Assembly (NCBI GenBank): GCA_015064445.1
Contig: SVSE01000004.1
Coordinates: 131,393-163,392 of the forward strand
Length of the DNA: 32,000 nucleotides
Direction: 5' to 3'
Source of the DNA: Oscillospiraceae bacterium
Lineage (GTDB): Bacteria > Bacillota > Clostridia > Oscillospirales > CAG-272
The notes below the pieces were generated by a model that was not told where the DNA came from, searched no databases, and worked only from the letters and a program-made list of their open reading frames with translations. The position numbers were made by a program, and so were the translations under genes. Positions within the stretch are counted from its first letter, which is position 1. Each line of letters starts with the position of its first letter. This document shows, piece after piece, positions 3,293 through 29,462 of this stretch.

Positions 3293-3322
3293 AAAAACAG
3301 CCACTCCTGTGGCTGTTTTTTG
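3293..3322 (+). terminator. Intrinsic terminator after addA (AAAAACAGCCAC-tcct-GTGGCTGTTTTTT)
   Basis: A 7-8 bp GC-rich stem followed by a T-tract, starting 2 nt after the addA stop. The same stem sequence recurs at 26876 and 31975. Confidence 0.8.
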
Positions 3323-3339: not shown

Positions 3340-3660
3340 CATTCCTCACGGACAAGCGTCCGAGGCAAATCCCGCGTTTGCTTAGTAAGTATTGAACAAC
3401 TCCCACGAAGCAATCTCATTCCGAATTCCGAATTGAAGAACCCAAGCTCGCTGTTCTTTCGAACAGGCTACTACGTAGCTTGTGAAAATCAAATAGCATT
3501 TTCACGCTTGGAACCTTGATACTCGCTTTCGCTCGTATACGCATTCTCATTCCGAGTTCGTCGCGAAGCGATTTCATCCAAGTTCTACTTGGATTTCATC
3601 CCAACGGGATTTCATCCACCTTGGTGGATTTCATCCCCTTCGCATTCCGAATTTCTGCCC
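3340..3660. repeat. Composite repeat region: module M, two direct ATTCCGA heptamer tracts and a 4-unit GATTTCATCC hairpin array
   Basis: Nt 3365-3434 closely match 11800-11870 (ggcaaatYccgc..cttagtaagtattgaacaac..cgaagcaatctcattccgaattccgaatt). GATTTCATCC cores lie at 3570, 3592, 3608 and 3627, separated by small palindromes. A second cattccgaattt tract lies at 3642-3654. Confidence 0.7.
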
Positions 3661-5934: not shown

Positions 5935-6581
5935 ATCTGCTCCTGTGCCTCTTGGAAAAGATGAATTGCGCTCTTTATGTCGTTAATGTTGTAGCCATAA
6001 CGCATAAGTGCTGTCATCATCTTTTTAAGCCCGTCGGCATCCTTTGGCAATGGATTATACTTGTGCTCAATAATCCAAGCGCAGTTTTCAGCAAAATTAA
6101 CCTCGGCAAGGGCGTCCTTAACATACTCGGAAACCTCGTCACGACGGTAGCCCTTTAAAATAAGCTCCTCGGTAATCTTGATTCTACCAAATTTCTTTTT
6201 AAGATAAGTGTCAATAAGCAAGCCCATCTGCTTTTTCTCATCAATGTAGCCACGATGCTCCATGTATATTGCAACATTTTCGCAAAGCTCACGAGAAAAG
6301 CCCTGTGCCATAAGCTTGTTAACAAGCATCTTTTTATTGTTTTCGCCATAGGAAAGGATTGAAAATGCGTGTCTGCGAGCATTGTCAAACAAATGCTCCT
6401 CTCTTATCTTGAGAAAATGCGCATCGTCAATAATCTCTCCCTCGTCAAGATCAAAGCGATCGTACTGATCAGGTGAAACAGGCATCTCAAAATTCGTTCC
6501 CATAGAGGAAGCGATGAAAAAGATATATCCCTGCGCGGTCTTTTTAATCTTTTCGATTTTGTAGTAAATTTTATTATCCAT
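5931..6581 (-). CDS. recX: RecX-like regulatory protein
   Basis: Helical-repeat protein of about 216 aa lying downstream of recA. I prefer ATG 6581 (MDNKIYY), which has an AAAGGAAA RBS. The assignment rests on size, position and general RecX-like repeat character. Confidence 0.6.
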   Translation of the reverse strand: MDNKIYYKIEKIKKTAQGYIFFIASSMGTNFEMPVSPDQYDRFDLDEGEIIDDAHFLKIREEHLFDNARRHAFSILSYGENNKKMLVNKLMAQGFSRELCENVAIYMEHRGYIDEKKQMGLLIDTYLKKKFGRIKITEELILKGYRRDEVSEYVKDALAEVNFAENCAWIIEHKYNPLPKDADGLKKMMTALMRYGYNINDIKSAIHLFQEAQEQI

Positions 6582-6615
6582 ATTTTTCCTTTCAGGCATA
6601 GCCTGACGCGTTAAA

Positions 6616-6673
6616 GTGTGAAATGCGAGGTGCAAAGTGCGAAGTTCGACTCCGCAACCTCATTAATTCACAC
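6616..6673. repeat. Long hairpin built from GTGCGAA-type heptamers (recA-recX spacer)
   Basis: GTGTGAA (6616-6622) pairs with TTCACAC (6667-6673), and GAGGT (6627-6631) pairs with ACCTC (6657-6661). The interior contains gtgcaaagtgcgaagtt heptamer units. Confidence 0.55.
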
Positions 6674-6710
6674 ACTGTTTAAGATTTTAAGATTTTCTAT
6701 CTTTCGAAAT

Positions 6711-6837
6711 TTCGATTGATTAGAACAAGTTAGGTTAGGCGCACCGGAAACTGCGGACGACGGCGTACTTGGTGTACGGTTAGGTCGCAGTTGAGGAGCA
6801 ACAACACATAACGCAGTTATAATCGGTCGAAATTAGT
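6711..6837 (-). repeat. Stop-codon-anchored imperfect-palindrome element, copy A1 (after recA)
   Basis: 127 nt. The flanks are identical to copy A2 (36 nt and 45 nt). The 16-nt terminal inverted repeats are ttcgattgattagaac (6711-6726) and gttataatcggtcgaa (6816-6831). The repeat runs through the recA TAA. Confidence 0.85.
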
Positions 6838-7942
6838 CTTCGAGTCCGAGCGCGCTAAGATCAAAATCCCCATTATCCAAAATGTCGTCCTCCATCTCTG
6901 GAGCTTCGCCATTAGCAAGCTTTGCTTTGATTTTTTCCTCAAGCTCTGCCATTATGTCAGGGCTTGCCTCAAGATGCGCCCTCATCTTGTCCTTACCTTG
7001 AATTTTTGTTTCGCCATAGGTAAAGAATGAGCCACTCTTTTCAACAATTCCGAGCTCGATTGCCATATCAACGATTTCAGTTGACTTGGAAATGCCCGAG
7101 CCATAGAGAATCTCGAACTCTGCTACCTTAAATGGTGGAGCAACCTTGTTTTTAACAACCTTTGCCTTAACTCTGTTACCGTAAGCCTCGCTTCCGTTTT
7201 TGAGAGTTTCGCTCTTTCTTATATCAATTCTAACCGATGCATAGAATTTAAGCGCGTTACCACCTGTTGTTGTTTCAGGATTTCCGTACATAACGCCTAT
7301 CTTGCTTCTGAGCTGGTTGATAAAGATAAGAATACAGTTTGTCTTGTTGATTGCACCTGCGAGCTTACGGAGCGCCTGTGACATAAGTCTTGCCTGTACG
7401 CCCATATGACTGTCGCCCATTCCACCCTCGATTTCCTGCTGAGGAACGAGTGCAGCAACGGAGTCAATTACAATTATATCCACAGCGCCAGAGTTTATAA
7501 GCGCCTCGGCAATTTCGAGTGCCTGCTCTCCATTATCTGGCTGTGAAACCAAAAGCTCGTCAATGTCAACACCGATAGCCTTTGCATATACAGGATCGAG
7601 TGCGTGCTCTGCATCGATAAATGCAGCAGTTCCTCCCTGCTTTTGGCTTTCTGCCACTGCGTGAAGTGCTATTGTTGTCTTACCTGATGATTCAGGACCA
7701 TAAATTTCAATAATTCTTCCCTTTGGAAGTCCACCTACGCCAAGCGCAAGGTCAAGGGAAAGAGAGCCTGTTGATACTGCACTGATTTTGATATCAGGAG
7801 CATCGCCCAAACGGATAATTGAGCCCTCGCCATTATCCTTTCTTATCTGAGCAAGTGCTGTTTCAAGGGCCTTTTTTCTCTGATCAGCTGTGCTTTCAGC
7901 TACGCCCTTTTTTTCAGTCTTTGCCGACTTCTTTGTTGCCAT
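6833..7942 (-). CDS. recA: Recombinase RecA
   Basis: 369 aa with Walker [10 protein letters not shown] and full-length RecA-like sequence ([20 protein letters not shown]..). Confidence 0.97.
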
Positions 7943-8093
7943 ATTTATTCCTTTCCGCGCGGTCGAGAGCCTCGACGGGCATCATCCGCGTTCGATTCTT
8001 TAATTTGCTTAGTCCTCACGAAGCAATTTTCACTTCGCATTCCGAATTTCATTACTTATTAAATTCGAGCAAAACTCGTATTTAAGTGTCTTT

Positions 8094-8207
8094 GTGCTAA
8101 ACAAGACAAGGCGCACCGGAAGAACAACGGACGACGGTGTATACTCATACTCCGAGGTCGGTGTTCGGGAGCAACGCAGTATTGTAACGCACAAAGCGCT
8201 TAAATTA
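8094..8207 (-). repeat. Stop-codon-anchored imperfect-palindrome element, copy B1 (after the lipoprotein gene)
   Basis: Shares caagacaaggcgcaccg..gacgacggtgtat..tactccgaggtcgg..cgggagcaacg with the reverse complements of 26362-26466 and 26722-26834. It begins TAATTTAAG at the gene's stop codon. Confidence 0.8.
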
Positions 8208-8765
8208 ATAAGTAGGACCGTCTATTCTCCAACCGTCAGCCTCGTAAACCAAAACAACCTCAAGTGTGCTATCTCCGTCTACGCTTTTAACGGTGGCTTT
8301 TATTTCTCTTCTTCTGTTTTTTGTAATTTCAAGCGTTGATGTGTCGTATTTTTCAACCTCGTCCAAGATATTATCATAATCCTTACGCACGGTTAGGTAT
8401 CCGTCGTAGCCTGTTATATATCTTGCGTAAAGGACAACTCCGTAGCTCGATGTGCCATCGATATAAACGCTTATCAAATCGTCTGCTATTCTATCGGAGA
8501 AAACAGCCTTTGTTTCAACGATTAGGTCGTTTCGGAGCTTAAAGGGCGAATCCTCTGCTATATGATAATAGCTTCCCTCAACCTGCTCCTCCTCATCGTA
8601 GGGCAAGCCCTCTCCGTAATATGCCACATTGAGATTATACGAGCGCTCGAGGAGGTCGCACGCGATATCGTACGCCTCTTCATCGCTTTGTCTTTTACAG
8701 GATGGGAGCAAAATAACGCTCGCCAGCAATAAAACCATCAACAGAACAGCTATAAATCTTCTCAT
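8205..8765 (-). CDS. Hypothetical lipoprotein
   Basis: Signal peptide with a lipobox (LLPSC). The ATG lies 3 nt after the gyrA stop. I recognise no family. Confidence 0.6.
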   Translation of the reverse strand: MRRFIAVLLMVLLLASVILLPSCKRQSDEEAYDIACDLLERSYNLNVAYYGEGLPYDEEEQVEGSYYHIAEDSPFKLRNDLIVETKAVFSDRIADDLISVYIDGTSSYGVVLYARYITGYDGYLTVRKDYDNILDEVEKYDTSTLEITKNRRREIKATVKSVDGDSTLEVVLVYEADGWRIDGPTY

Positions 8766-11327: not shown

Positions 11328-11885
11328 AAATGCGGAATTCGGAGTGCGGAATTCGGAATGTATCCGTTTCCTCTTCCTTGTCCGTTTTGCCTATCATTTA
11401 TTGTTTAAATTTTCCTTGGTGGTTTTGGTTATTGACACCAAAATACTACAAATTTCATCAATGTTATTGTATATGCTTTCAAATTCGTTTTGCGTAAGAT
11501 ATTCCGTTTTATACAGCAACCTTATCCAATAGCTTGTTTCGTTAGCTTCCTTCAAGGCAATGGTCATTTTTGTATAAAAATCCGCAGTTGTTTGAGCTTT
11601 TTGAGCCTCGAAAACATTTGCTCCCACGCTCGTTCCACACCTCAAAAGCTGTTTTGATAAAACCGTTTCTTTTTTCTTGGCTTTTAAGTAGTTGCACAGC
11701 TTTACTATTCTAACGGCGAAATCAAAGCTTTTTTCTTCTATTACATTTCCCATTTCGTTTCGCTCCAAATATCATTCCGCATTTCGCAGGCACGCGCCTG
11801 AGGCAAATTCCGCACTCACTTAGTAAGTATTGAACAACCCTCGCGAAGCAATCTCATTCCGAATTCCGAATTCCGCATTCCGAAT

Positions 11886-14025: not shown

Positions 14026-14191
14026 GATGAATTGATGCTAACGCATCATGAATTCTCGCTTCGCTCCATGAATCGAATTGCAACACCAAATGCCGAAGGC
14101 AATTCATGCGATTTATCGCAATTCATGACACGCAGTGTCAATTCATGCAACGCAGTTGCAATTCATTGTGAAATAGCAGGAGCTATTTCAC
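14026..14191. repeat. Hairpin-chain array C1 (CATGAAT / AATTCATG cores)
   Basis: AATTCATG/T cores lie at 14101, 14120, 14140 and 14160 (spacing 19-20 bp), each followed by a 10-11 nt palindrome. The left half carries inverted CATGAAT cores. Homologous arrays lie at 17518-17677 and 29219-29437. Confidence 0.8.
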
Positions 14192-14433: not shown

Positions 14434-14919
14434 GTTCGAAGTGCGAAACGCGAAGTGCGAAGTTATCTCTTGCACGGGCATTCTCGCATATCCTTTAGTT
14501 ATTTTTAGAAATATTTTCCTTTGTGGTTTTAGTTATTGCTACCAGCATTCCACAAATTTCTCTTGCATCCTTTTCTATACTTTCAAATTCGCTATCTGAA
14601 AGATAGTCGGTTTCGTGTAAAAGATTGATCCAATAAATGGTTTCGTTTGCTTCCTTTAATGCAATAGACATTTTTGCATAAAAATCGGGCTTTGATTGTC
14701 CTTTTTCGGCTTCAACTACGTTTGCGCCGATACTCGTTCCCGCCTTTAGAAGTTGATTTAAAAGAATCAAGTTGCTCTTTTTTTCTTTTAAGTGGTCGTA
14801 TAGCTTTACGATTCTGGTTGCGAATTTGAAGCTTTTTTCCTCTATAATGCTATTCATTTTCGCCACCAACCTTGAATTTCGCGTTTTCAACTTCGCACTC
14901 CGCACTTCGCACTTCACAC
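14434..14919 (-). mobile_element. Inverted-heptamer cassette 2 carrying a four-helix-bundle gene
   Basis: The left arm is gttcgaagtgcgaaacgcgaagtgcgaagtt (14434-14464). The right arm is cttcgcactccgcacttcgcacttcacac (14891-14919). They match about 24/29 as reverse complements, in TTCGCAC-type heptamer units. Mobility is inferred. Confidence 0.55.
14495..14857 (-). CDS. Four-helix-bundle protein (23S rRNA intervening-sequence protein family), paralog 2
   Basis: 120 aa (MNSIIEEKSFKFATRIVKL..GTSIGANVVEA..KMSIALKEANETIYW), by eye about 60% identical to the 11394-11753 product. ATG 14857 has a GGTGG RBS and overlaps the recF 3' end by 8 nt. Confidence 0.85.
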   Translation of the reverse strand: MNSIIEEKSFKFATRIVKLYDHLKEKKSNLILLNQLLKAGTSIGANVVEAEKGQSKPDFYAKMSIALKEANETIYWINLLHETDYLSDSEFESIEKDAREICGMLVAITKTTKENISKNN

Positions 14920-16075: not shown

Positions 16076-16146
16076 ACTAAGAATTATACGAATAAATAAA
16101 TTAGCGTATTTTAGACACCTTAGAGCAAGTAAGGTCCTCTCTTTCA

Positions 16147-16272
16147 TTCGATTGATTAGAACAAGTTAGGTTAGGCGCACCGCAGGCGACAGACGAAGGC
16201 TATCTTATGATAGTCGAGGTTGTCGGCGAGGAGCAACAACACATAACGCAGTTATAATCGGTCGAAATTAGT
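16147..16272 (-). repeat. Stop-codon-anchored imperfect-palindrome element, copy A2 (after dnaN)
   Basis: 126 nt. The flanks are identical to A1. The 45-nt core is only about 44% identical to the A1 core but can still form the same two stems. The repeat runs through the dnaN TAA. Confidence 0.85.
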
Positions 16273-17413
16273 TGTTCATTCTAATAGGCATAACGAAGTA
16301 CTTATATGTCGCCTCGTCCTTATTCTGTGGCTCGATGAGAACGCCCATGAGTGGATTATTATACGACATTTTTATTTCACAGTCGTCACATACACGGAGT
16401 GCGTCGAGCATAAAGCGACAGTTGAAGCCTATTACGATTTCTCCGTCGTCATCCTTTCTTATCGGAATTGTATCAAATACATTTCCGTTTGAGGATGTGG
16501 TTGACACCAAAAGCTCCTCGCCTACTGTGAATTTTACATATGAACGAACGCTTCCTGCAAGACGGTCCTCAACGATAAGTGAGCTTCTTTCAAGCGCGCC
16601 ACGAAGTGTTGCACTGTCAAGATATGTTACCACCTTGTGTGTTGATGGAAGAATTCTGTTATAGTCAATGTACTCGGAGTCGATGGTCTTTGAGAAGAAC
16701 ATATATGCGCCGAAGTGGAAAATGATATAACGACGGCTGATTCTTATCTCCATCTTCTCGTCTGTGTCCTTGGTCATCTTAAGAATGTCGCTTAAGGTCT
16801 TGCCAGGAACGATAAATTTAAGGTTGAGGGACATTCCGTCCTTGTTTCTGTTTTCGAGAACTATGTCCTTTTCACAATATGCAAGTCTGTTACCGTCGCA
16901 GGCAACGAGGAGCATATTGTCACTTGTAATCTTGAAGTATGCACCATTAAATACAGGGCGAGAGTCGTTTTGTCCTATCGCAAAGTATACTCTGTTTACA
17001 AGATTTCTGAAAAGGCTCTGCTCAATTATAAAGCCTCTGTCACCGATTACCTCTGGAAGTGGTGGGAACTGGTCGCCAGGGAGCGCCTTAATGTCAAAGT
17101 GTGATGGGCCAGACTCAATTTTGGTTGAGAATGTGTCGTCAACCGTCAAGCGAATGTCGCCAGCTGGCATTACCTTCATAATTTGAAGGAGTTTGTTCGC
17201 GTTGATTATTACATCGCCCTCCTCCTCTACATTTGCAATAATAGAGGTGCGGAAGCCCTTTTCAAGGTCCTGTGTTTCAATTTTGCACTTGCCATCCTCA
17301 GTACAGATAAGATGCACGCCCTCAATTGTCGCCATTGTGTTTTTTCCTGCTACGCAAAGAAGCGCTGGGCTGAGCGCGTTCATTAAAGTGTCTCTGTCAA
17401 AAATTACTACCAT
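16268..17413 (-). CDS. dnaN: DNA polymerase III beta sliding clamp
   Basis: Full-length beta-clamp-like sequence located between dnaA and recF. I prefer ATG 17413 (MVVIFDRDTLMNAL), which has a GGGAGAAAAG RBS, over the track start at 17467. Confidence 0.93.
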   Translation of the reverse strand: MVVIFDRDTLMNALSPALLCVAGKNTMATIEGVHLICTEDGKCKIETQDLEKGFRTSIIANVEEEGDVIINANKLLQIMKVMPAGDIRLTVDDTFSTKIESGPSHFDIKALPGDQFPPLPEVIGDRGFIIEQSLFRNLVNRVYFAIGQNDSRPVFNGAYFKITSDNMLLVACDGNRLAYCEKDIVLENRNKDGMSLNLKFIVPGKTLSDILKMTKDTDEKMEIRISRRYIIFHFGAYMFFSKTIDSEYIDYNRILPSTHKVVTYLDSATLRGALERSSLIVEDRLAGSVRSYVKFTVGEELLVSTTSSNGNVFDTIPIRKDDDGEIVIGFNCRFMLDALRVCDDCEIKMSYNNPLMGVLIEPQNKDEATYKYFVMPIRMNN

Positions 17414-17445
17414 ATCTTTTCTCCCATTTGTTAGTCGTATTTTTT

Positions 17446-17499
17446 TACATTCATTTTTCTTTAACAAAAGAAAAACGAACCAAAAAGAAAGTGAATGTA
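17446..17499 (-). repeat. Leader module D2, upstream of dnaN
   Basis: The sequence tacattcatttttctttaacaaaagaaaaacgaaccaaaaagaaagtgaatgta forms nested inverted repeats and is homologous to D1. Confidence 0.55.
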
Positions 17500-17517: not shown

Positions 17518-17677
17518 ATGAATCGATGCATCGCATCATAAATTCTCGCTACGCTCCATGAATCGGCTTCGCCATGAATCGAATTGCAACCCAAATGCCG
17601 AAGGCAATTCATGCGACTTGTCGCAATTCATGACACGCAGTGTCGATTCACGCAACTGCTAGGTTGCAATTCATTGC
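17518..17677. repeat. Hairpin-chain array C2 (AATTCATG cores), abutting the DnaA-box cluster
   Basis: Cores lie at 17606, 17625, 17645 (gattcacg) and 17668, with spacing 19/20/23 bp. It is collinear with C1 and C3. Confidence 0.8.
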
Positions 17678-17683
17678 AAACCA

Positions 17684-18070
17684 CTTTCCACATTCGTGTT
17701 TTCACTTTCCACTCGGTGCGGTTTGATTTTTCCACATTTATCCACATCGGCGAAAAATCCGTTTGCCATAAGACTTTTTGTAGCCTTTCCACGCATAAGC
17801 TTTCCACAGTTGGTAATTTGGTGGATTGTTTCAAGATTTTTCCAACACACATTCCACGCATTTTTGCACTATGTTTTCCACTATATGAAGTGAGCAAATT
17901 TGCAGGAAAAATCCTCTTAAAAAGCGAGATTTCGGAGTTTTCCACGCTTTCCCTGTCCTCTACTACTACTCCTGCTAAGGAGTTAATATATATTAAGAAA
18001 AAACAAGAAAAAAGAAGTCGGGGCGGGGAAGCCCCCGCTATCAAATAAAACCGATGATTTATGTGGATAA
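17684..18070. other. oriC: oriC: DnaA-box cluster, DnaA-trio-like repeats and AT-rich unwinding element (dnaA-dnaN spacer)
   Basis: A perfect TTATCCACA lies at 17738-17746 and a perfect inverted TGTGGATAA at 18062-18070. Boxes with 1-2 mismatches, all in the same orientation, lie at 17684, 17704, 17728, 17785, 17800, 17837, 17850, 17874 and 17938. The tactactact tract at 17961-17970 reads TAGTAGTAG on the minus strand. An AT-rich stretch follows at 17981-18017. Confidence 0.85.
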
Positions 18071-19619: not shown

Positions 19620-19724
19620 TGTAAAATTCCTTCCTTTTTAGTCAATTTTTCATAAATTATCTATCTTCTATTCAATACGCACGCCTACGCGCGAACACGC
19701 GAGCGCATACTTACTCTATATTAA

Positions 19725-19753
19725 ATTATATAATAAATATTGTATATTGTCAA
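19725..19753 (-). promoter_or_regulatory. Putative sigma-A promoter of dnaA (TTGACA-17-TATAAT)
   Basis: The minus strand reads cTTGACAatatacaatatttattaTATAATtt, with both hexamers at consensus and a 17-nt spacer, about 100 nt upstream of the GTG start. Confidence 0.7.
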
Positions 19754-19793
19754 GAATTTTTTATCAATTTTCCACGCTCTTGCTTGATAATTA

Positions 19794-19822
19794 TTGACAA
19801 TAATAAAAAAATGTGATAAAAT
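19794..19822 (+). promoter_or_regulatory. Putative sigma-A promoter (TTGACA-17-TAAAAT, TG-extended) for the ECF S-component gene
   Basis: The sequence is ttaTTGACAataataaaaaaatgTGaTAAAATactc, 26 nt upstream of ATG 19848. Confidence 0.65.
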
Positions 19823-19847
19823 ACTCAAAAAATAAAGGAGATGCAAT

Positions 19848-20450
19848 ATGGAAAAGAAAAAAATATCAACGCTTACTCTTTGTGAGCTTGGAATACTTTT
19901 TGCACTTGTAATTGTTCTTCAATCAATATCAAGCATAGGTGTAGTAACTCTTTGCCTTTGCCTTGTTCCTATAACTCTTGGCGCTATGACAATCGACTGG
20001 CGTGGTGGCGCTATCTTGGGCTTTACCTTTGGTGTTGTAGCTTTATTTTGGGGAATTGTTGGAAAGGATGTATTCACACTTTACCTCTTTCAGGCAAATC
20101 CTGTAATGACAATTTTGATTTGCATTGTAAAGGGAACTCTTTGTGGAATTGCCCCAGCACTCATTTGGAAGCTTTTAAAGGACAAAAACGCGATTTTGGC
20201 GTCAGTTGTGGCATCAATTATCACACCTGTTGTAAACACAGGAATTTTCGCCCTTGGCGCACTCTTAATCAAAAAGGATGTAATAGGAGTTGCTAATACT
20301 CTCGGAATACAGTTCGATAATTTCTTCACACTTCTATTTGGAGTTCTCATCACAACAAACTTCTTAATTGAGCTTGTAATAAACATAGTTTGCTCCCCTG
20401 CTCTTTGCAAGGTTACACAGGTTGTTGAAAAAAATTTCAAAAAGTCTTGA
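19848..20450 (+). CDS. ECF-transporter S-component-like integral membrane protein (substrate unknown)
   Basis: 200 aa with about 6 TM helices, of the size and hydrophobic pattern typical of ECF S components, and an AAAGGAG RBS. The family call is by general resemblance only. Confidence 0.5.
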   Translation: MEKKKISTLTLCELGILFALVIVLQSISSIGVVTLCLCLVPITLGAMTIDWRGGAILGFTFGVVALFWGIVGKDVFTLYLFQANPVMTILICIVKGTLCGIAPALIWKLLKDKNAILASVVASIITPVVNTGIFALGALLIKKDVIGVANTLGIQFDNFFTLLFGVLITTNFLIELVINIVCSPALCKVTQVVEKNFKKS

Positions 20451-20475
20451 CATATAAAAAAATATGTGATATATT
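20447..20475 (+). promoter_or_regulatory. Putative promoter (TTGACA-17-TATATT, TG-extended) driving the tRNA-Ser leader
   Basis: The sequence is cTTGACAtataaaaaaatatgTGaTATATT, overlapping the stop codon of the upstream gene and about 160 nt upstream of the tRNA. Confidence 0.55.
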
Positions 20476-20638
20476 AAATAGGCAAAATGCGTTATATGCA
20501 GAAATAACTTGACCAAAGTCAAGAATGATTACACTAATCGCTTACAAGCGAGCTTGACGCGATTTTAGTTTAATTTGCGAAGCGAATTTAAATCAAAGAT
20601 TTAAAGCCATTCGATATTCTCTGCATATATAAACATAT

Positions 20639-20725
20639 GCAGGAATATCGAAGCGGTCACAACGAGGCGGTCTTGAAAACCGTTGGCCTAACGGCACGGG
20701 GGTTCGAATCCCTCTTCCTGCGCCA
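20639..20725 (+). tRNA. tRNA-Ser (anticodon UGA), class II with a long variable arm and encoded CCA
   Basis: Hand fold: acceptor GCAGGAA/TTCCTGC; D stem TCG/CGA; anticodon stem GCGGT/ACCGT with loop CTTGAAA; a 14-nt variable arm; T arm GGGGG-TTCGAAT-CCCTC; discriminator G followed by CCA. Confidence 0.8.
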
Positions 20726-20728
20726 AAT

Positions 20729-20764
20729 AAAAAAGGTAGTGTTTATTTAGCACTACCTTTTTTG
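20729..20764 (+). terminator. Intrinsic terminator after tRNA-Ser
   Basis: The sequence is aaaaaGGTAGTGtttatttagCACTACCtttttt. Confidence 0.8.
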
Positions 20765-20944
20765 TTTCTCATAAATGTAATGAGGGATTCGAACCGTAGG
20801 CGTTAAGAAACCATTCGGGGAATGATTTTAGACGGTGACCGAAGAATTTTGCAAAGATAATGAAAGATATTAAACAAATCCTTTGCAAAATTCAAGAACG
20901 AATTTCTCTTCCTGCTTTTTAAAAATTCCTTTTCTCCCATCAAA

Positions 20945-20978
20945 TAAAAAAGATAGGCAAGTAGCCTATCTTTTTTTA
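20945..20978 (-). terminator. Terminator after the Cys-rich lipoprotein gene (bidirectional shape)
   Basis: The sequence aaaaaaGATAGGCaagtaGCCTATCttttttt ends 3 nt from the stop codon at 20981. Confidence 0.75.
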
Positions 20979-20980
20979 TT

Positions 20981-23900
20981 TTAGTTATTCTCTTTTGATA
21001 TGCTTATAATGCTACCACAGTCTGGGCAATATGTAACATTGTCATTGACGGTTGGAGTGCTATTGTGCTCAAAATCCTCACAAGGCTTGTAATTTTGAAT
21101 TACAAAGTCAAATTCAACGCTATCAATATAATCCCAGCAATCAAACTCAAGAGTGTAGGTTACTCCCTCTACAAGATAACAATTTAAATAGAAATTATTA
21201 TCTACTCCACTATTGTCGTTAACAAGTATAAGAGAATCTTCCTCATAGATATATAATACTGTGTCATGGTCGCCAATAGAATAAAATGAGTAAAATCCAC
21301 TTACGCTTGGAGTAAATTCAAATGTATTATTTGAATTTGACAATGTATAATTATGTATTTGTGCAAAGGTATTATATGAGCATTGTGAGCAATTACCAGA
21401 GAGATGATAGCATTCGCCTGAGTCAATTACATTATATACAAGAGAATGGTCATCTATTAATGCAAAATTAGAGATACCGAGGCATTCAACACAAATATCG
21501 ATTAAAATTTGTCTGCCCAAGCAGCCTGTTGAATTAAAATCAATTTTATGTCTGCTTGTATAACAATCGCCACAAATATTAACTGCGCCCTCTGCTACTA
21601 CAAATGATATGTCAATATTTTCATCAAAATCATAGTCGCCAGCTCTTAAAACATAGGTCTCTCCCTCGATTAAATCATAGGTAATCAAGAAATTGTTATT
21701 TATTCCATCATCATCGTTTGATGCAACAAGCTTATATTCGTTATCAACTAGCATATAAAGCCTTGCCTCTGTGTCATAACCTGTTACGGAATAGAAGGAA
21801 TATGTAGCTGTTTTTGGAGCGGTAAATATGTAATCATAGCAATAGCTACCGTCTGATGCCATTCGTGTGCTAACATTAAATATTGTTGATATTGCGCTCT
21901 TATTACATTCGGTGCACCTTGCTGTAACGGTTGGATTGCCAGCATAGCCAGGCTCAACAGTAGGAGTAAATGTGTGCTCTATTTCCTCGTATGAGAATAT
22001 CTTTTCATAGAAAGGAGTATTTCCCTTGCAAATTTCAATGGTTGAATAGTAAAGAACGACACATCCGTCCTTATTTTCCTTGCCCTCGCCTATGCGAAGC
22101 TTATAATCACATGTGCTACAGGAATATTCCTTTACGCCACCAGACTCGACAAGTGTAAGAGATTCATAATCTCCGTAAAGATCAATTTGTCTGTTACATA
22201 CACACGCCATTATGTCAAGGTTATGGGAATTACAAATATTGTCGCCCTTGCTTTGGTCTAAATCAAGGCTATAAATAAGATCTGTTATATGAGAATTGAA
22301 TGGGAAAACATCATAATGGTCACAATTTTTGCAGGCTTTTGCCATATAACCACCGTTTTTACAGTTGCCATCAATTATATTTATATTAATATTCTCGTAA
22401 TCGTGAGATGTACTCGCTTCCTCAATATATTTATAATCCTCAAAAAGCACAACTCCAGCAATTTTAGCAGTAATATCAATGTATTTCATAGCGGTACAGC
22501 CATCTGTCTTGGTTGTTCCCTTTAATATGAATACAACCTCGCCATTTTGCGACTCATATTTTTCAAAACCGTCCTCCACTGTTTTAGTAAAATCAGAAAG
22601 GGAAATTTCATAAATATTTGAGCTAATGCAAGTGCCACATGGACAGTATTTTACATTTAAGACAAGCTCGTTTGAGATAGTTGAATCGTACGAGTTAAGA
22701 ATATATTCTTCCTCAATTAAGCCCTTGCACTCGTTTATTATTTCAGATTCAGAATAGTCACAGGCTGTGCACGCGCTTACAATTTCAACGCCGTCCTTAC
22801 AGGTTGCGCCAAGAAGATTATAGCTTTCTTCAAGATTGTGCTCGGTATATTCGTAAATAACGCTTGTAAGCGATGTTGTGCCATAGAAAATATCTCTTGT
22901 CATTACAGTATGGCAATTTTCATCGGTTGCCATTGAGTAGGAATACTTAATAGGACAGCTACTACATGAATAGGTGTATACAGTAACGCCATTTACAACC
23001 TCTGCTGATGGTGTCATAGTACAGCTATATTCATAATCCATGTCAATAACCAAGCCACACGCATCACAAACTCTATTTAAAATCCAAGCGCCAGGGCAAG
23101 CGTCATCACAGCCTGTCAAATCAACATATTTTTCGGTAAATGAGTTGTGATAGTCGCTCTTGTATGATGCCTTTTGGTGACATTCCTTACATTCGCCAAC
23201 CATAATCACGCCATCATAGCAGGATTTGTTTTCCTCGTCTGTGAAAAGATATTTTATGTCCCAATCACACTCGCCACCAGCATATTCTTCGTCGATAAAT
23301 GAGGTAATAGGAGTGTCATTTTGGTCGTAAATTACAAGCTCGACAACATCTGTTTTGTTACAGCCGTCTAATTTTGTGTACTTGTCGATGACTATCTTAA
23401 GTGAGCAATCATCGCAGTCAATTGTTGTTATATTGTGTGTTAGTCCATCGAGCTTTGTTACACTCTCGGCTTCAGGCATTACACCATCATTACAAAAGAT
23501 TTCATATTCTTGAACATATAAAATCTCGCCACAGTCCTCACAAGCGCCAACATAGAAGTAGTTGTGACAGCTACTATACTCTCTTAGGTCAAGATAATAA
23601 GATACAGCATTTGAGTGACTTGGAATTTGCTCGACAACCGAGCCATCAAGATATGTATTTTTATCGTCGAAAATTTTAACTGAAAGCGAAAGCTCCTCAA
23701 CACAATTGCTTTTTGAGGTAACCTGTGTTTGATTTGACTTAATTCCACAGGTGGTGCAGGTGCCATTTTTGTCAAGGGTGCAAAGATATGAAAGGCATTC
23801 CGTATCTAAGGTCTGCATTTTACATTCCTTACACTCGGTGTAGCCAATAAAGCTTGGGCAGTAGCCATAATCGGCAAGATTTAGATACTTTGTATCAAGC

Positions 23901-24570: not shown

Positions 24571-26361
24571 ATGTTTATTACAAATGATATCAAGTATATC
24601 GGTGTAAACGACCACAAGATCGACCTTTTTGAGGGACAGTACGATGTGCCTAACGGAATGGCATACAATTCCTATGCAATTCTTGATAAAAAGGTTGCAA
24701 TTATCGACACAGTAGATGTAAATTTCACACACGAGTGGCTCGATAACATTCAAAATACACTTGCCGGCAGAAAGCCCGATTATCTCATAATTCAGCATAT
24801 GGAGCCTGACCATTCTGCAAATATCGCTAACTTTATGCGCGTATATCCAAATACAACCGTAGTTTCCTCGCAAAAGGCGTTTGCAATGATGCTCAACTTC
24901 TTTGGAACAGAGTTTACTGATAATAGAATCGTTGTTGGCGAGGGCGATACACTCTCCCTTGGCGAGCATACTCTTACCTTTGTTAGCGCGCCTATGGTTC
25001 ACTGGCCAGAGGTTATTGTGACATATGATTCAAGGGACAAGGTTCTCTTCTCTGCTGACGGCTTCGGCAAGTTCGGCGCACTCGATGTTGAGGAGGATTG
25101 GGCGTGCGAGGCAAGACGCTACTATATCGGTATCGTTGGCAAATATGGCGCACAGGTACAGGCGCTTTTGAAAAAGGCAGCAGGACTTGATATAAGCATT
25201 ATTTGTCCACTTCACGGTCCTGTTCTTAGTGAAAATCTTGGCTACTATATCGGTCTTTATAATATCTGGTCAAGCTACAGCGTTGAAAGTGACGGAATTG
25301 TAATTGCGTACACATCTGTGTATGGAAATACCAAAAAGGCAGTTATGCTCTTGGCTGAAAAGCTCAAGGAAAAGGGCTGTCCTAAGGTAGTTGTAAACGA
25401 CCTTGCAAGATGCGATATGGCAGAGGCAGTTGAGGACGCATTTAGATACGGAAAGCTCGTGCTTGCGACCACAACCTATAACGCAGAGATTTTCCCATTT
25501 ATGCGTGAGTTTATCAACCACCTAACTGAGCGTAACTTCCAAAATCGCACAGTTGCCTTTATCGAAAACGGCAGCTGGGCACCTCTTGCAACTAAGGTTA
25601 TGAGAGGAATGCTTGAAAAGAGCAAAAATCTTACCTATACCGACGCAACCGTTAGAATTATGAGCGCGCTAAACGAGGAAAGCACCTCGCAAATTGAGGC
25701 ACTTGCAAGCGAGCTTTGTCGTGATTATCTTGCGCGTCAGAGTGAAACTGCAAATAAGAACGACCTAAGCGCACTTTTCAATATCGGCTATGGTCTTTAT
25801 GTTGTAACCTGTAACGACGGTAAAAAGGACAACGGTCTTATCGTAAACACCGTTACACAGCTTACAAATACACCAAACCGTGTTGCTGTAACAATCAATA
25901 AGGAAAACTACTCGCACCATATAATTAAGCAGACAGGCGTTATGAATGTAAATTGCCTTTCTGTTGACACTCCATTCGCTGTTTTTGAAAAATTCGGCTT
26001 CCAGAGTGGTCGTAATGTAGATAAATTCGAGGGCTGTGAGCCACTCCGCTCCGACAACGGTCTTATCTTCCTTCCAAGAAACATAAATTCGTTTATGTCC
26101 CTTAAGGTTGAGAGCTATGTTGACCTCGATACTCACGGAATGTTCATCTGCTCCGTTACCGAGGCGCGCGTGATTTCCGATAGAGAAACAATGTCCTATA
26201 CCTATTATCTTGAAAATGTTAAGCCAAAGCCACAAACCGAGGGCAAAAAGGGCTATGTGTGCAAGATTTGTGGTTATGTTTACGAGGGCGATACTCTCCC
26301 CGACGACTTTATTTGTCCTTTGTGTAAGCATGGGGTTGCGGATTTTGAACCAATCGTCTAA
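24571..26361 (+). CDS. Multidomain flavodiiron protein: metallo-beta-lactamase-like diiron core, flavodoxin, flavin-reductase-like domain and C-terminal rubredoxin
   Basis: Diiron ligand motif HMEPDH, a flavodoxin segment (IVIAYTSVYGNTKK), a flavin-reductase-like segment (GLYVVTCNDGKKDNGLIVNTV) and a rubredoxin end (YVCKICGYVYEG..FICPLCKH). Confidence 0.85.
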   Translation: MFITNDIKYIGVNDHKIDLFEGQYDVPNGMAYNSYAILDKKVAIIDTVDVNFTHEWLDNIQNTLAGRKPDYLIIQHMEPDHSANIANFMRVYPNTTVVSSQKAFAMMLNFFGTEFTDNRIVVGEGDTLSLGEHTLTFVSAPMVHWPEVIVTYDSRDKVLFSADGFGKFGALDVEEDWACEARRYYIGIVGKYGAQVQALLKKAAGLDISIICPLHGPVLSENLGYYIGLYNIWSSYSVESDGIVIAYTSVYGNTKKAVMLLAEKLKEKGCPKVVVNDLARCDMAEAVEDAFRYGKLVLATTTYNAEIFPFMREFINHLTERNFQNRTVAFIENGSWAPLATKVMRGMLEKSKNLTYTDATVRIMSALNEESTSQIEALASELCRDYLARQSETANKNDLSALFNIGYGLYVVTCNDGKKDNGLIVNTVTQLTNTPNRVAVTINKENYSHHIIKQTGVMNVNCLSVDTPFAVFEKFGFQSGRNVDKFEGCEPLRSDNGLIFLPRNINSFMSLKVESYVDLDTHGMFICSVTEARVISDRETMSYTYYLENVKPKPQTEGKKGYVCKICGYVYEGDTLPDDFICPLCKHGVADFEPIV

Positions 26362-26466
26362 TGGTTTTATGCTTTGCAATACTGCGTTGCTCCCGAATGC
26401 CGACCTCGGAGTATGTAAATACACCATCGTCCGTCATTCTTCCGGTGCGCCTTGTCTTGCTTAGCC
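26362..26466 (+). repeat. Stop-codon-anchored imperfect-palindrome element, copy B2 (after the flavodiiron gene)
   Basis: It starts directly after the TAA at 26359-26361. The sequence is gctttgcaatactgcGTTGCTCCcgaatgccgacctcggagtat..atacacc..cgtccgtcattc..CGGTGCGCCttgtcttgc. Confidence 0.8.
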
Positions 26467-26565
26467 TAAAAGCCATTATCATAGGTGGTTTTATGCGTCG
26501 TTATGCGTCGTTACTAACCGCTTTCATCAAAAACAAATTAAAAATATATATAAGAGGTAAAAGCT

Positions 26566-26724
26566 ATGAAAAAGTATGTATGTGAAGTATGTGGATGGGA
26601 ATACGATGAGGCTGAGGGCGCTCCAGAGTACGGAATCGCTCCTGGCACAAAATTCGAGGATCTTCCAGAGGATTTCGAGTGCCCGCTTTGTGGAGTGGAT
26701 AAGACTAATTTCGCAGAAGCATAA
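26566..26724 (+). CDS. Rubredoxin (52 aa; below the ORF-track size cutoff)
   Basis: My own translation gives [52 protein letters not shown], with two CxxC pairs and an AAGAGG RBS 8 nt upstream. Confidence 0.9.
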
Positions 26725-26834
26725 TTTAAGAGGCTTATGCTTTGCAATACATCGTTGCTCCCGAATGCCGACCTCGGAGTATGCATATACACCGTCGCCC
26801 GTCATTCTTGCGGTGCGCCTTGTCTTGCTTTGCC
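26722..26834 (+). repeat. Stop-codon-anchored imperfect-palindrome element, copy B3 (after rubredoxin)
   Basis: It begins TAATTTAAG at the rubredoxin stop, as B1 does. It is about 90% identical to B2 and in direct orientation to it. Confidence 0.8.
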
Positions 26835-26875
26835 TAACCACTCTTAAAATAGGGTTTTAAACACCATAAAACAAG

Positions 26876-26905
26876 AAAAACAGCCACAGAAGTGGCTGTT
26901 TTTTG
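26876..26905. terminator. Bidirectional terminator (AAAAACAGCCAC-agaa-GTGGCTGTTTTTT) between the convergent rubredoxin and zinc-ribbon genes
   Basis: An A-tract, hairpin and T-tract arrangement, with the same stem as at 3293 and 31975. Confidence 0.8.
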
Positions 26906-28989: not shown

Positions 28990-29173
28990 TATAAAGCGAG
29001 CAAGGCTCTCAGACGAGAGCTGACTCGAAACAAAAATAGGCACTATTGACAACCCGAAATCGCCAAAAACAGCTCAAAAAGCGAAAAAATACGCGATTTT
29101 TGCACCAATAATGCCTAAAAAGACTCATTTTTAACATATTTTATAGAAAATTGTTGACAAGTCAACAATTTAA

Positions 29174-29207
29174 GTGCGAAATGCGAAATGTGAAATGCGA
29201 AGTGAAT
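29174..29207. repeat. Heptamer tract (GTGCGAA/ATGCGAA/ATGTGAA units), solo arm
   Basis: The sequence is gtgcgaaatgcgaaatgtgaaatgcgaagtgaat, with the same unit type as the cassette 2 arms. I found no inverted partner in the window. Confidence 0.6.
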
Positions 29208-29218
29208 TAGGAGAGTCA

Positions 29219-29437
29219 ATGAATCGATGCTATCGCATCACGAATTCTCGCCACGCTCCATGAATTGGCTTACGCCATGAATTGAATTGCAACATAGCCT
29301 CCATCTGACGAGGGAGGTGGCTTGCGAAGCAAGACGGAGGGAGAGATTTCCCTATGCCAAAGGCAACTCGCGCGATTTATCGCAATTCATGACACACCGT
29401 GTCAATTCACGCAACCGTAAGGTTGCAATTCATTGCA
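29219..29437. repeat. Hairpin-chain array C3 (AATTCATG cores) with an internal insertion of about 65 nt
   Basis: It is collinear with C1 and C2, with cores at 29384, 29404 and 29427. An extra segment at 29296-29360 contains a CCTCC..GGGAGGTGGC hairpin. The array ends 26 nt before the soj ATG. Confidence 0.8.
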
Positions 29438-29462
29438 AAGCACACATACATATCGAGGTATC

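Follow-up and report, generated by a model that had tools for sequence, protein, structure and literature searches.

Stop-codon hairpin repeats: a new family of interspersed, structured and insertion-polymorphic elements in uncultured gut and rumen Clostridia

Introduction

REP/BIME sequences and REPINs, which are found in Proteobacteria and mobilized by RAYT, a Y1 HUH transposase, are imperfect palindromes that occur extragenically in high copy number and, in the case of REPINs, form hairpins of ~100 nt. They are non-autonomous, lie between the genes of operons or near stop codons, carry conserved mismatches in their stems and affect mRNA 3' ends. ERIC of enterobacteria, BOX, RUP and SPRITE of pneumococcus, bcr1 of the Bacillus cereus group and the Correia elements of Neisseria are intergenic long hairpins of ~100-150 nt. 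In this group, elements are cotranscribed with their neighbors, bcr1 exhibits compensatory changes and BOX has a modular composition. REP, ERIC and BOX hairpins stabilize upstream mRNA, and REP sequences located within 15 nt of stop codons reportedly lower translation in E. coli.

In the IS200/IS605 ssDNA transposons, the active strand lies on the lagging-strand template. Their miniature elements (PATEs), which carry two subterminal hairpins, and the 'peel and paste' mode of this group combine a lack of target duplication with an orientation tied to replication, and repeated insertion at one flank in this mode would give arrays in which the copy nearest to the target is the youngest. [quoted passage not shown] In attC arrays, an orientation that keeps the folding strand off the single-stranded lagging-strand template is established logic (PMC5371416).

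Here we describe hairpin repeats found in a window of 32,000 nt, the whole stretch of Oscillospiraceae DNA that was analyzed. We are confident that these stop-codon hairpin repeats constitute a new family of hairpin repeats that are interspersed, structured and polymorphic for insertion. They are broadly of the REP/ERIC/BOX kind and work like REP/REPIN, ERIC, BOX or bcr1, and they are members of none of these families by the tests reported below. They take up an appreciable part of the intergenic DNA near core genes, with five copies in the 32 kb studied here and up to six in 21 kb in relatives, and their hosts are Clostridia of gut and rumen that are abundant yet uncultured. They are absent from the RNA and repeat libraries that we searched; they will confuse the annotation of 3'UTRs, small RNAs and terminators, and break metagenome assemblies. 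By virtue of their gene-end placement, single polarity and shuffling, they are useful for understanding how small mobile DNA picks its sites and survives, and they provide a covariation-rich alignment ready for testing whether a protein reads the folded DNA or RNA strand.

Results and discussion

Five copies of the repeat in a replication-origin region

In the window, we confirmed the identities of dnaA, recF, gyrB, gyrA, recA and dnaN, whose presence identifies it as a replication-origin region, together with those of a flavoprotein gene and a rubredoxin gene. An AT-rich stretch (19620-20980, GC ~0.36) located between dnaA and a gene of 1139 aa is the likely oriC region. It holds a tRNA-Ser(TGA) at 20639-20725 and an AT-rich palindrome at ~20939-20983, and the cumulative GC skew turns near 20-24 kb of the window.

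A scan of the window with the covariance model of the family returned exactly five copies, A to E, with E-values of 1e-24 to 1e-28. Likewise, the composite pattern GGCGCACCG..GACGA..GGAGCAAC occurred four times, versus 0.00 occurrences expected by chance. A and B had been noticed in a sequence-only reading of the window, to which C, D and E add three further members. Hereafter, S designates the strand of the repeat that reads GGCGCACCG.

Copy A (6708-6837, or 6711-6837 in the comparison of the twins A and B; 96.8 bits) has its S strand on the + strand and abuts the stop codon of recA (6833-7942, - strand; PF00154, 2.7e-138). Copy B (16147-16272, + strand; 97.4 bits) abuts the stop codon of dnaN (16268-17467, - strand; DNA_pol3_beta domains). 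The right flank that A and B have in common includes the complement of the TAA stops of recA and dnaN (6833-6835 and 16268-16270, respectively), a point that had escaped the earlier reading. The termini of the twins are TTCGATTG.../...TCGAAATTAGT; these ends vary between genomes, and the conserved motifs are interior. Distal to B, a decayed 5'-arm remnant of an older copy (TTAGAGCAAGTAAGG; 16100-16146, + strand) was read from the sequence and compared with a related locus, L118 (loci from other genomes carry numbers with the prefix L).

The three other copies are diverged members. Copy C (~8080-8205, + strand; 84.6 bits) comes next after hyp186, a conserved hypothetical gene of 186 aa (8205-8765, - strand), with the 3' end of its S strand against the stop of this gene (8205-8207). 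D and E have S on the - strand. D (26359-26478; 95.6 bits) follows a flavo-diiron-type flavoprotein gene (24571-26361, + strand) and includes its stop codon (26359-26361). E (26725-26848; 86.3 bits) begins 0 nt past the stop codon (26722-26724) of the rubredoxin gene (26566-26724, + strand) and upstream of a bidirectional intrinsic terminator (26875-26904), which places E within the rubredoxin 3'UTR and shields its S strand from the convergent transcript.

Two other features of the twins were considered and rejected. A small peptide in the mRNA sense, read from the sequence as ATG-TGT-TGT... in A and B alone, is unconserved, and so is the segment GCAGTATTGCG, in which a likeness to an HUH nick site was seen.

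A long irregular hairpin with covarying stems

The repeat is one long irregular hairpin. From the base upward, variable outer arms come first, followed by a near-invariant helix, GGCGCACCG/GGAGCAAC, with fixed mismatches. Above it stands P2, a variable stem whose closing G.T is fixed in 52 of 59 copies, then the loop GACGAnGG/GAG and, finally, a variable apical hairpin. We read the GACGAn/GAG loop as a tandem G.A/A.G beside a C-G pair and one bulged base. The GACGAnGG island, first recognized in A and B, is real and is kept across the family. The whole A/B unit had been described as a long imperfect palindrome of ERIC/MITE-like appearance with two foldable cores. Fold computation agrees with this description, as each core forms an outer stem (P2) and an apical hairpin of 5-7 bp, and the z-scores of A and B on the + strand are -4.2 and -5.0 with RNA parameters and -4.4 and -4.1 with DNA parameters, respectively.

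The sequence-only reading had also held that the structure is conserved beyond neutral decay, and had proposed collecting the genomic copies and computing covariation. In an alignment of 59 copies, which was fitted to the covariance model, 23 of the 24 pairs changed on both sides and 94.8% of the cells were paired, compared to 75% in shuffles and 22-41% with slid partners; none of 500 shuffles reached the observed values. RNAalifold applied to 40 copies gave 25 pairs, 19 of which carried compensatory changes. Our results therefore confirmed that the structure has been conserved beyond what neutral decay would leave.

Read on the S strand, G.U-type cells outnumber A.C-type cells by 118 to 17. 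Furthermore, the pair 60-79 is GT in 33 copies, GC in 10 and AT in 6, a mix that makes sense on the S strand only. When folded as ssDNA, the S strands of all five window copies reached -21.5 to -26.6 kcal/mol (z-scores -4.0 to -4.6), versus -13.6 to -20.3 kcal/mol (z-scores -1.5 to -2.9) for their complements, and RNA parameters ranked the two strands likewise for A and B. Since the excess of G.U-type cells outside two fixed positions is modest (33 vs 17) and the copies are related, hence not independent, the conclusion that the S strand folds better than its complement is good but not final.

In each of the five window copies, S runs antisense to the gene upstream, with a 3' end that touches the complement of the stop codon, and is therefore not the sense strand of the recA or dnaN 3'UTR. 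The stable 3'UTR-derived RNA suggested earlier runs into a difficulty here, as the strand on which the tandem G.A, the variable G.T/G-C/A-T pair and the fixed G.T are found is antisense to both genes. Copy E lies between the rubredoxin stop and the bidirectional terminator and is consequently transcribed as the complement of S, and its S strand stands directly behind the terminator of the convergent gene. We found no promoter-like site that could drive S at A to E. A role as intrinsic terminator was rejected, as the repeats have no U-tract and no terminator-like site was called at any of the five copies.

Shuffling of modules among copies

As initially noticed, A and B are 100% identical over a left flank of 36 nt (TTCGATTG...GCACCG) and a right flank of 45 nt (GAGGAGCAAC...GAAATTAGT), and diverge in cores of 46 and 45 nt, respectively. 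Expressed as module identities (arms / P2 / apical hairpin), A compared to B gave 1.00 / 0.45 / 0.47. Other pairs of copies displayed other profiles. A shares P2 and the apical hairpin with a copy at another site of a near-identical genome (L050:77; 0.55 / 0.95 / 0.89), and B resembles its ortholog L118:2263 mostly in the apical hairpin (0.60 / 0.60 / 0.85). Within a single locus, L118:6539 has the P2 of L118:9786 (0.57 / 1.00 / 0.63) and the apical hairpin of L118:11150 (0.62 / 0.25 / 1.00). The apical hairpin of B recurs in seven other copies and its P2 in L111:6502. Overall, a few types of arms, P2 and apical hairpins occur in many combinations and assort independently between copies, with module junctions that fall within the conserved islands. 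Linear chimeras in which P2 is broken (e.g., L063:3816 and both L121 copies) score poorly.

These observations indicate that an exchange of modules within the family, and not the compensation of substitutions in situ, made the cores of A and B different. The in situ compensatory turnover that had been proposed for the A/B core was therefore not borne out: A and B are mosaics. The alternative considered at that time, two unrelated insertions within a common scaffold, captures the fact that the cores were exchanged and fails in that the exchanged modules are homologous parts of the family. Across the family, only the pairing combinations stay intact.

A few copies have a more irregular composition. 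Copies at L119:11128-11317 and L123:9716-9865 bear insertions of 40-80 nt in P2 or the apical region, that is, nested insertions. At L063:3930, L119:19795, L121:9742 and 14094, and L123:9716, a GGGGAACCCC palindrome with T-rich flanks stands in place of the 5' arm and at times also replaces the 5' half of P2, leaving unpaired half-elements.

Extent of the family

When one genome per species was scanned for the pattern, 117 loci came up, of which ~35 are true relatives, all from Oscillospiraceae, 'Eubacteriales' or Clostridia MAGs of gut or rumen origin with a GC content of 43-65%; the remaining loci were rejected as chance matches in high-GC genomes. The covariance model used for the searches, built from 38 copies, matched 59 copies in genome loci, 25 in contigs bearing recA homologues and 16 in metagenome loci, including the human gut. 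Besides the five copies of the window, at least ~100 copies of this 110-130-nt unit occur in related genomes, in hosts that are uncultured Oscillospiraceae-like Clostridia of gut and rumen represented by MAGs and metagenomes.

Searches of reference collections returned no described counterpart. With Rfam 15 at the gathering threshold, tRNA-Ser alone scored over the whole window, and in E-value mode nothing relevant was found in 6500-8400 up to E 10. BLAST against phages and plasmids gave no match to the repeat, none of the three pattern matches in a scan of viral contigs was a genuine member of the family, and a search of the published literature by sequence motif and keyword revealed no description of it.

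Long hairpin repeats beside unrelated genes were also seen in Acidobacteria and deltaproteobacterial MAGs (L007:1709-1773, L036, L058:6205-6278, L095 and L101). They have the islands GGCGCACCG..GACGA..GAGG..GGAGCAACGCAG and the tandem G.A in common with the family, without the P2 stem, and were unscored by both the covariance model and Rfam. These look-alikes may be distant relatives or a coincidence; they hint at possible related elements in other phyla.

Placement at gene ends

In 47 of 62 copies, a convergent ORF (80 codons or longer) has its stop at -7 to +43 nt from the 3' end of the model, and in ~44 of these 47 the stop is within 11 nt; a further analysis gave the same pattern. About seven more of the 62 come after an intrinsic terminator, and about eight copies are in the sense orientation, 5' of genes or between them. 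The base of the hairpin often takes in the stop codon: in D, TAATGG pairs with CCATTA, and in L082 the arm takes in the last codons of the gene. Stops at the junctions are TAA in 36 cases, TGA in 7 and TAG in 4, versus a background of 173, 81 and 40, respectively, and variable sequence follows them. TAA is therefore mildly enriched at the junctions and is not a fixed target.

The C-termini of the encoded proteins are equal with or without the element, as observed for DnaN (...VMPIRMNN), RecA (...LED) and GyrB (...ENLDI). Neither a target-site duplication nor a fixed terminus was definable, the stop lying -7 to +11 nt relative to the core.

Insertion polymorphism, arrays and polarity

Occupancy differs among the syntenic origin-proximal contigs of relatives whose RecA proteins are 81-94% identical. 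Filled and empty sites were observed behind dnaN, gyrB, hyp186, recA, hyp214, miaB and CDP-OH, and L120 has no copy at all, with tight gene junctions. Furthermore, the window and L118 have almost identical non-coding DNA immediately past B, yet differ in the arms and P2 of the element, indicating that the element turns over faster than its surroundings. Copies in one orientation are commonly arranged in tandem, with periods of 114-127 nt. Of 10 such arrays, 9 have their best-scoring copy next to the gene and degraded copies distally.

In the dnaA-adjacent loci of the window and eight relatives, S occupies the leading-strand template in 31 of 31 copies; in the window, three of the copies are to the left of the origin and two to its right. 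Because 29 of these 31 origin-region copies follow co-directional genes, polarity relative to replication is largely confounded with polarity relative to transcription. Replichore polarity is nonetheless kept at two independent sites among head-on genes, one at L118:16785, 40 nt upstream of a CotH gene, and the other at the MGS site (L119:19795 = L127:20046 = L128:16874). None of the ~14 head-on genes in the origin loci has a copy behind its stop, a gene-table count of weak significance. GC skew of the 8-kb loci, taken as a proxy for replication direction, is suggestive and confounded by gene orientation.

We looked for a gene that could mobilize the repeat. Clustering of the ORFs near the copies revealed no transposase, recombinase or reverse transcriptase beside any of them, and no recurrent protein family among all neighboring ORFs. 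No autonomous parent element or parent IS was found in ~700 kb of loci.

Comparison with known systems

The repeats have the generic features of structured intergenic repeats, namely dispersed copies, a compensated hairpin, intergenic location and insertion polymorphism. Unlike REP sequences and REPINs, they reside in Clostridia, have no sequence similarity to these elements and no GTAG-type head, and consist of one long hairpin in which two variable stems are nested, instead of an inverted REP pair, with a polarity that is uniform rather than alternating. No 5' tetranucleotide head and no inverted doublets were detected, all copies of a locus being in the same orientation, and there was no RAYT among the neighbors of the copies. 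ERIC, BOX, bcr1 and Correia elements are unrelated in sequence, and our repeats differ from them by the absence of a TA or other target duplication, by their stop-flush placement and strict polarity, and by their conservation across very different GC contents. In contrast to the two subterminal hairpins and lagging-strand template of the IS200/IS605 miniature elements, a single hairpin is present here, its better-folding strand occupies the leading-strand template, and its junctions are TAA, TGA or TAG followed by variable sequence instead of a fixed target of 4-5 nt. As for MITEs of the DDE type, the arms, which are inverted repeats by construction, vary from one subfamily to another, and neither A nor B is flanked by a direct duplication. 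Altogether, stop-flush placement, a single polarity, a non-Watson-Crick interior and modular shuffling are distinctive of the repeats.

Possible origins and functions of the repeats

What would place such hairpins at gene ends and preserve their pairing? Our preferred reading, which we consider an even call, is that they are non-autonomous mobile hairpin DNA whose folded S strand is read by a putative enzyme, with gene-proximal entry, shuffling by gene conversion and orientation-dependent persistence. According to this model, the folded S strand, probably as ssDNA, would be recognized by a putative trans-acting enzyme, which would explain the conserved loops and pairing. New copies would enter at the gene-proximal edge and older ones would decay distally, and gene conversion with junctions in the conserved islands would shuffle the modules. 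Those copies would persist in which the leading-strand template carries the strongly folding strand because, as we propose by analogy with attC, that strand is rarely single-stranded. After insertion, the weaker complementary hairpin would be transcribed in the 3'UTR of the upstream gene, where it would probably act as a generic 3'-end barrier at most. The main objections to mobility are that there is no mobilizing gene near the copies, that no termini or target duplication are definable, and that the strand choice of S is opposite to the IS200/IS605 rule. Conserved non-Watson-Crick loops in genomes with 43-65% GC would also fit a host RNA- or DNA-binding function. In a bolder and rather doubtful extension, the repeats would represent a new class of mobile or genome-structuring hairpin elements in which a folded strand with a tandem G.A/G.T loop is read by a putative enzyme and which combines precise gene-end installation, replication-set polarity and modular stem reshuffling.

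A host origin of the conservation is the main, somewhat unlikely rival: the complement of S could be a cis-acting 3'UTR RNA element, kept by selection at the stop codon, that protects against 3' exonucleases or modulates translation termination or ribosome release. The ~44 of 62 copies within 11 nt of a stop that is often included in the hairpin base, the transcription of E in the mRNA sense ahead of its terminator, and the preservation of the gene-proximal copy in arrays all favor such an element, and the mRNA-sense strand still folds as RNA (-36 and -30 kcal/mol, z-scores -3.5 and -2.5). The effect of REP sequences near stop codons mentioned above serves as precedent, as does the stabilization of upstream mRNA by REP, ERIC and BOX hairpins. 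However, conserved positions turn into A.C and pyrimidine-pyrimidine mismatches on the mRNA-sense strand, where pair 60-79 would be unpaired in most copies, and this explanation accommodates poorly the ~7 copies past a terminator, the ~8 sense-oriented copies 5' of genes or between them, and the close relatives that lack the element at the same genes, including L120, which has none. Alternatively, the active molecule could be a small structured RNA made from S, acting as antisense RNA at many loci or reverse transcribed in a SINE-like manner from a few master or array loci. RNA motifs typically display features such as those specific to S (the fixed G.U, the G.U/G-C/A-U pair and the tandem sheared G.A), the strong covariation is reminiscent of RNA families, and same-orientation tandem arrays in divergent intergenic regions (L049, L096 and L108) could be source genes. 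Yet there is no promoter-like site upstream of S in any window copy, the S strand of E directly follows a convergent terminator, no conserved 5' flank precedes S and no U-tract follows it, no reverse transcriptase adjoins the copies, and Rfam has no match, all of which makes an S-strand RNA improbable. We regard as very improbable that the repeats are attC-like sites of an integron-like system, the folded bottom strand of which would be recombined by a tyrosine recombinase. They do share with attC sites the form of imperfect palindromes of 110-130 nt located directly past ORF stops in one orientation, with a strand-specific fold, made by a strand that is antisense to the ORF and lies on the leading-strand template (PMC5371416). 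Membership is largely refuted because R boxes and an integrase are missing: the RYYYAAC/GTTRRRY triplets of R boxes are absent from the ends, no L boxes are present, conservation is interior instead of terminal, and gene tables revealed no integrase or attI in any locus. Moreover, the neighbors dnaN, recF, gyrB, gyrA and recA are syntenic core genes, not cassettes. The S-strand RNA and attC readings are thus less likely than mobile DNA and a 3'UTR element. Finally, the two sequences A and B alone would have left room for a likeness by chance, or for a recently duplicated sequence that decays neutrally with its structure unconstrained. This is excluded by the 0.00 composite-pattern matches expected by chance, by ~100 homologues in genomes with 43-65% GC and 23 of 24 covarying pairs, and by the comparison of the window with L118, in which the flanking intergenic DNA is ~97% conserved and the element differs.

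Other repeats in the window

Two paralogous small genes of the 23S_rRNA_IVP / bAvd-like family are found in the window (11394-11768 and 14495-14917, both on the - strand). They sit right behind the stop of gyrB or recF and are bracketed by inverted arrays of 7-8-nt repeats of the GTGCGGA/ATTCCGA type. Such arrays are located at 11320-11360/11855-11887, 14431-14464/14889-14923, 4263-4301/4575-4607, 6613-6646 and 29171-29204. A gene of this kind occupies the orthologous sites in some relatives and not in others, and so has the appearance of a second mobile unit that competes for gene ends. An 89-nt direct repeat, 84% identical between 3346-3434 and 11784-11872, ends in ATTCCGAATTCCGAATT and adjoins the heptamer-type arrays.

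A third repeat family consists of arrays of small, GC-rich hairpins separated by the spacer octamer CATGAAT(T/C)G / CAATTCAT (14027-14179, 17530-17684 and 29219-29443 in the window). These arrays are stop-flush in relatives too, as seen in L119 after the dnaN and gyrB stops. Lastly, two near-identical 28-nt bidirectional terminator hairpins (AAAAACAGCCAC....GTGGCTGTTTTT) occur at 3293-3320 and 26876-26903, 23.5 kb apart.
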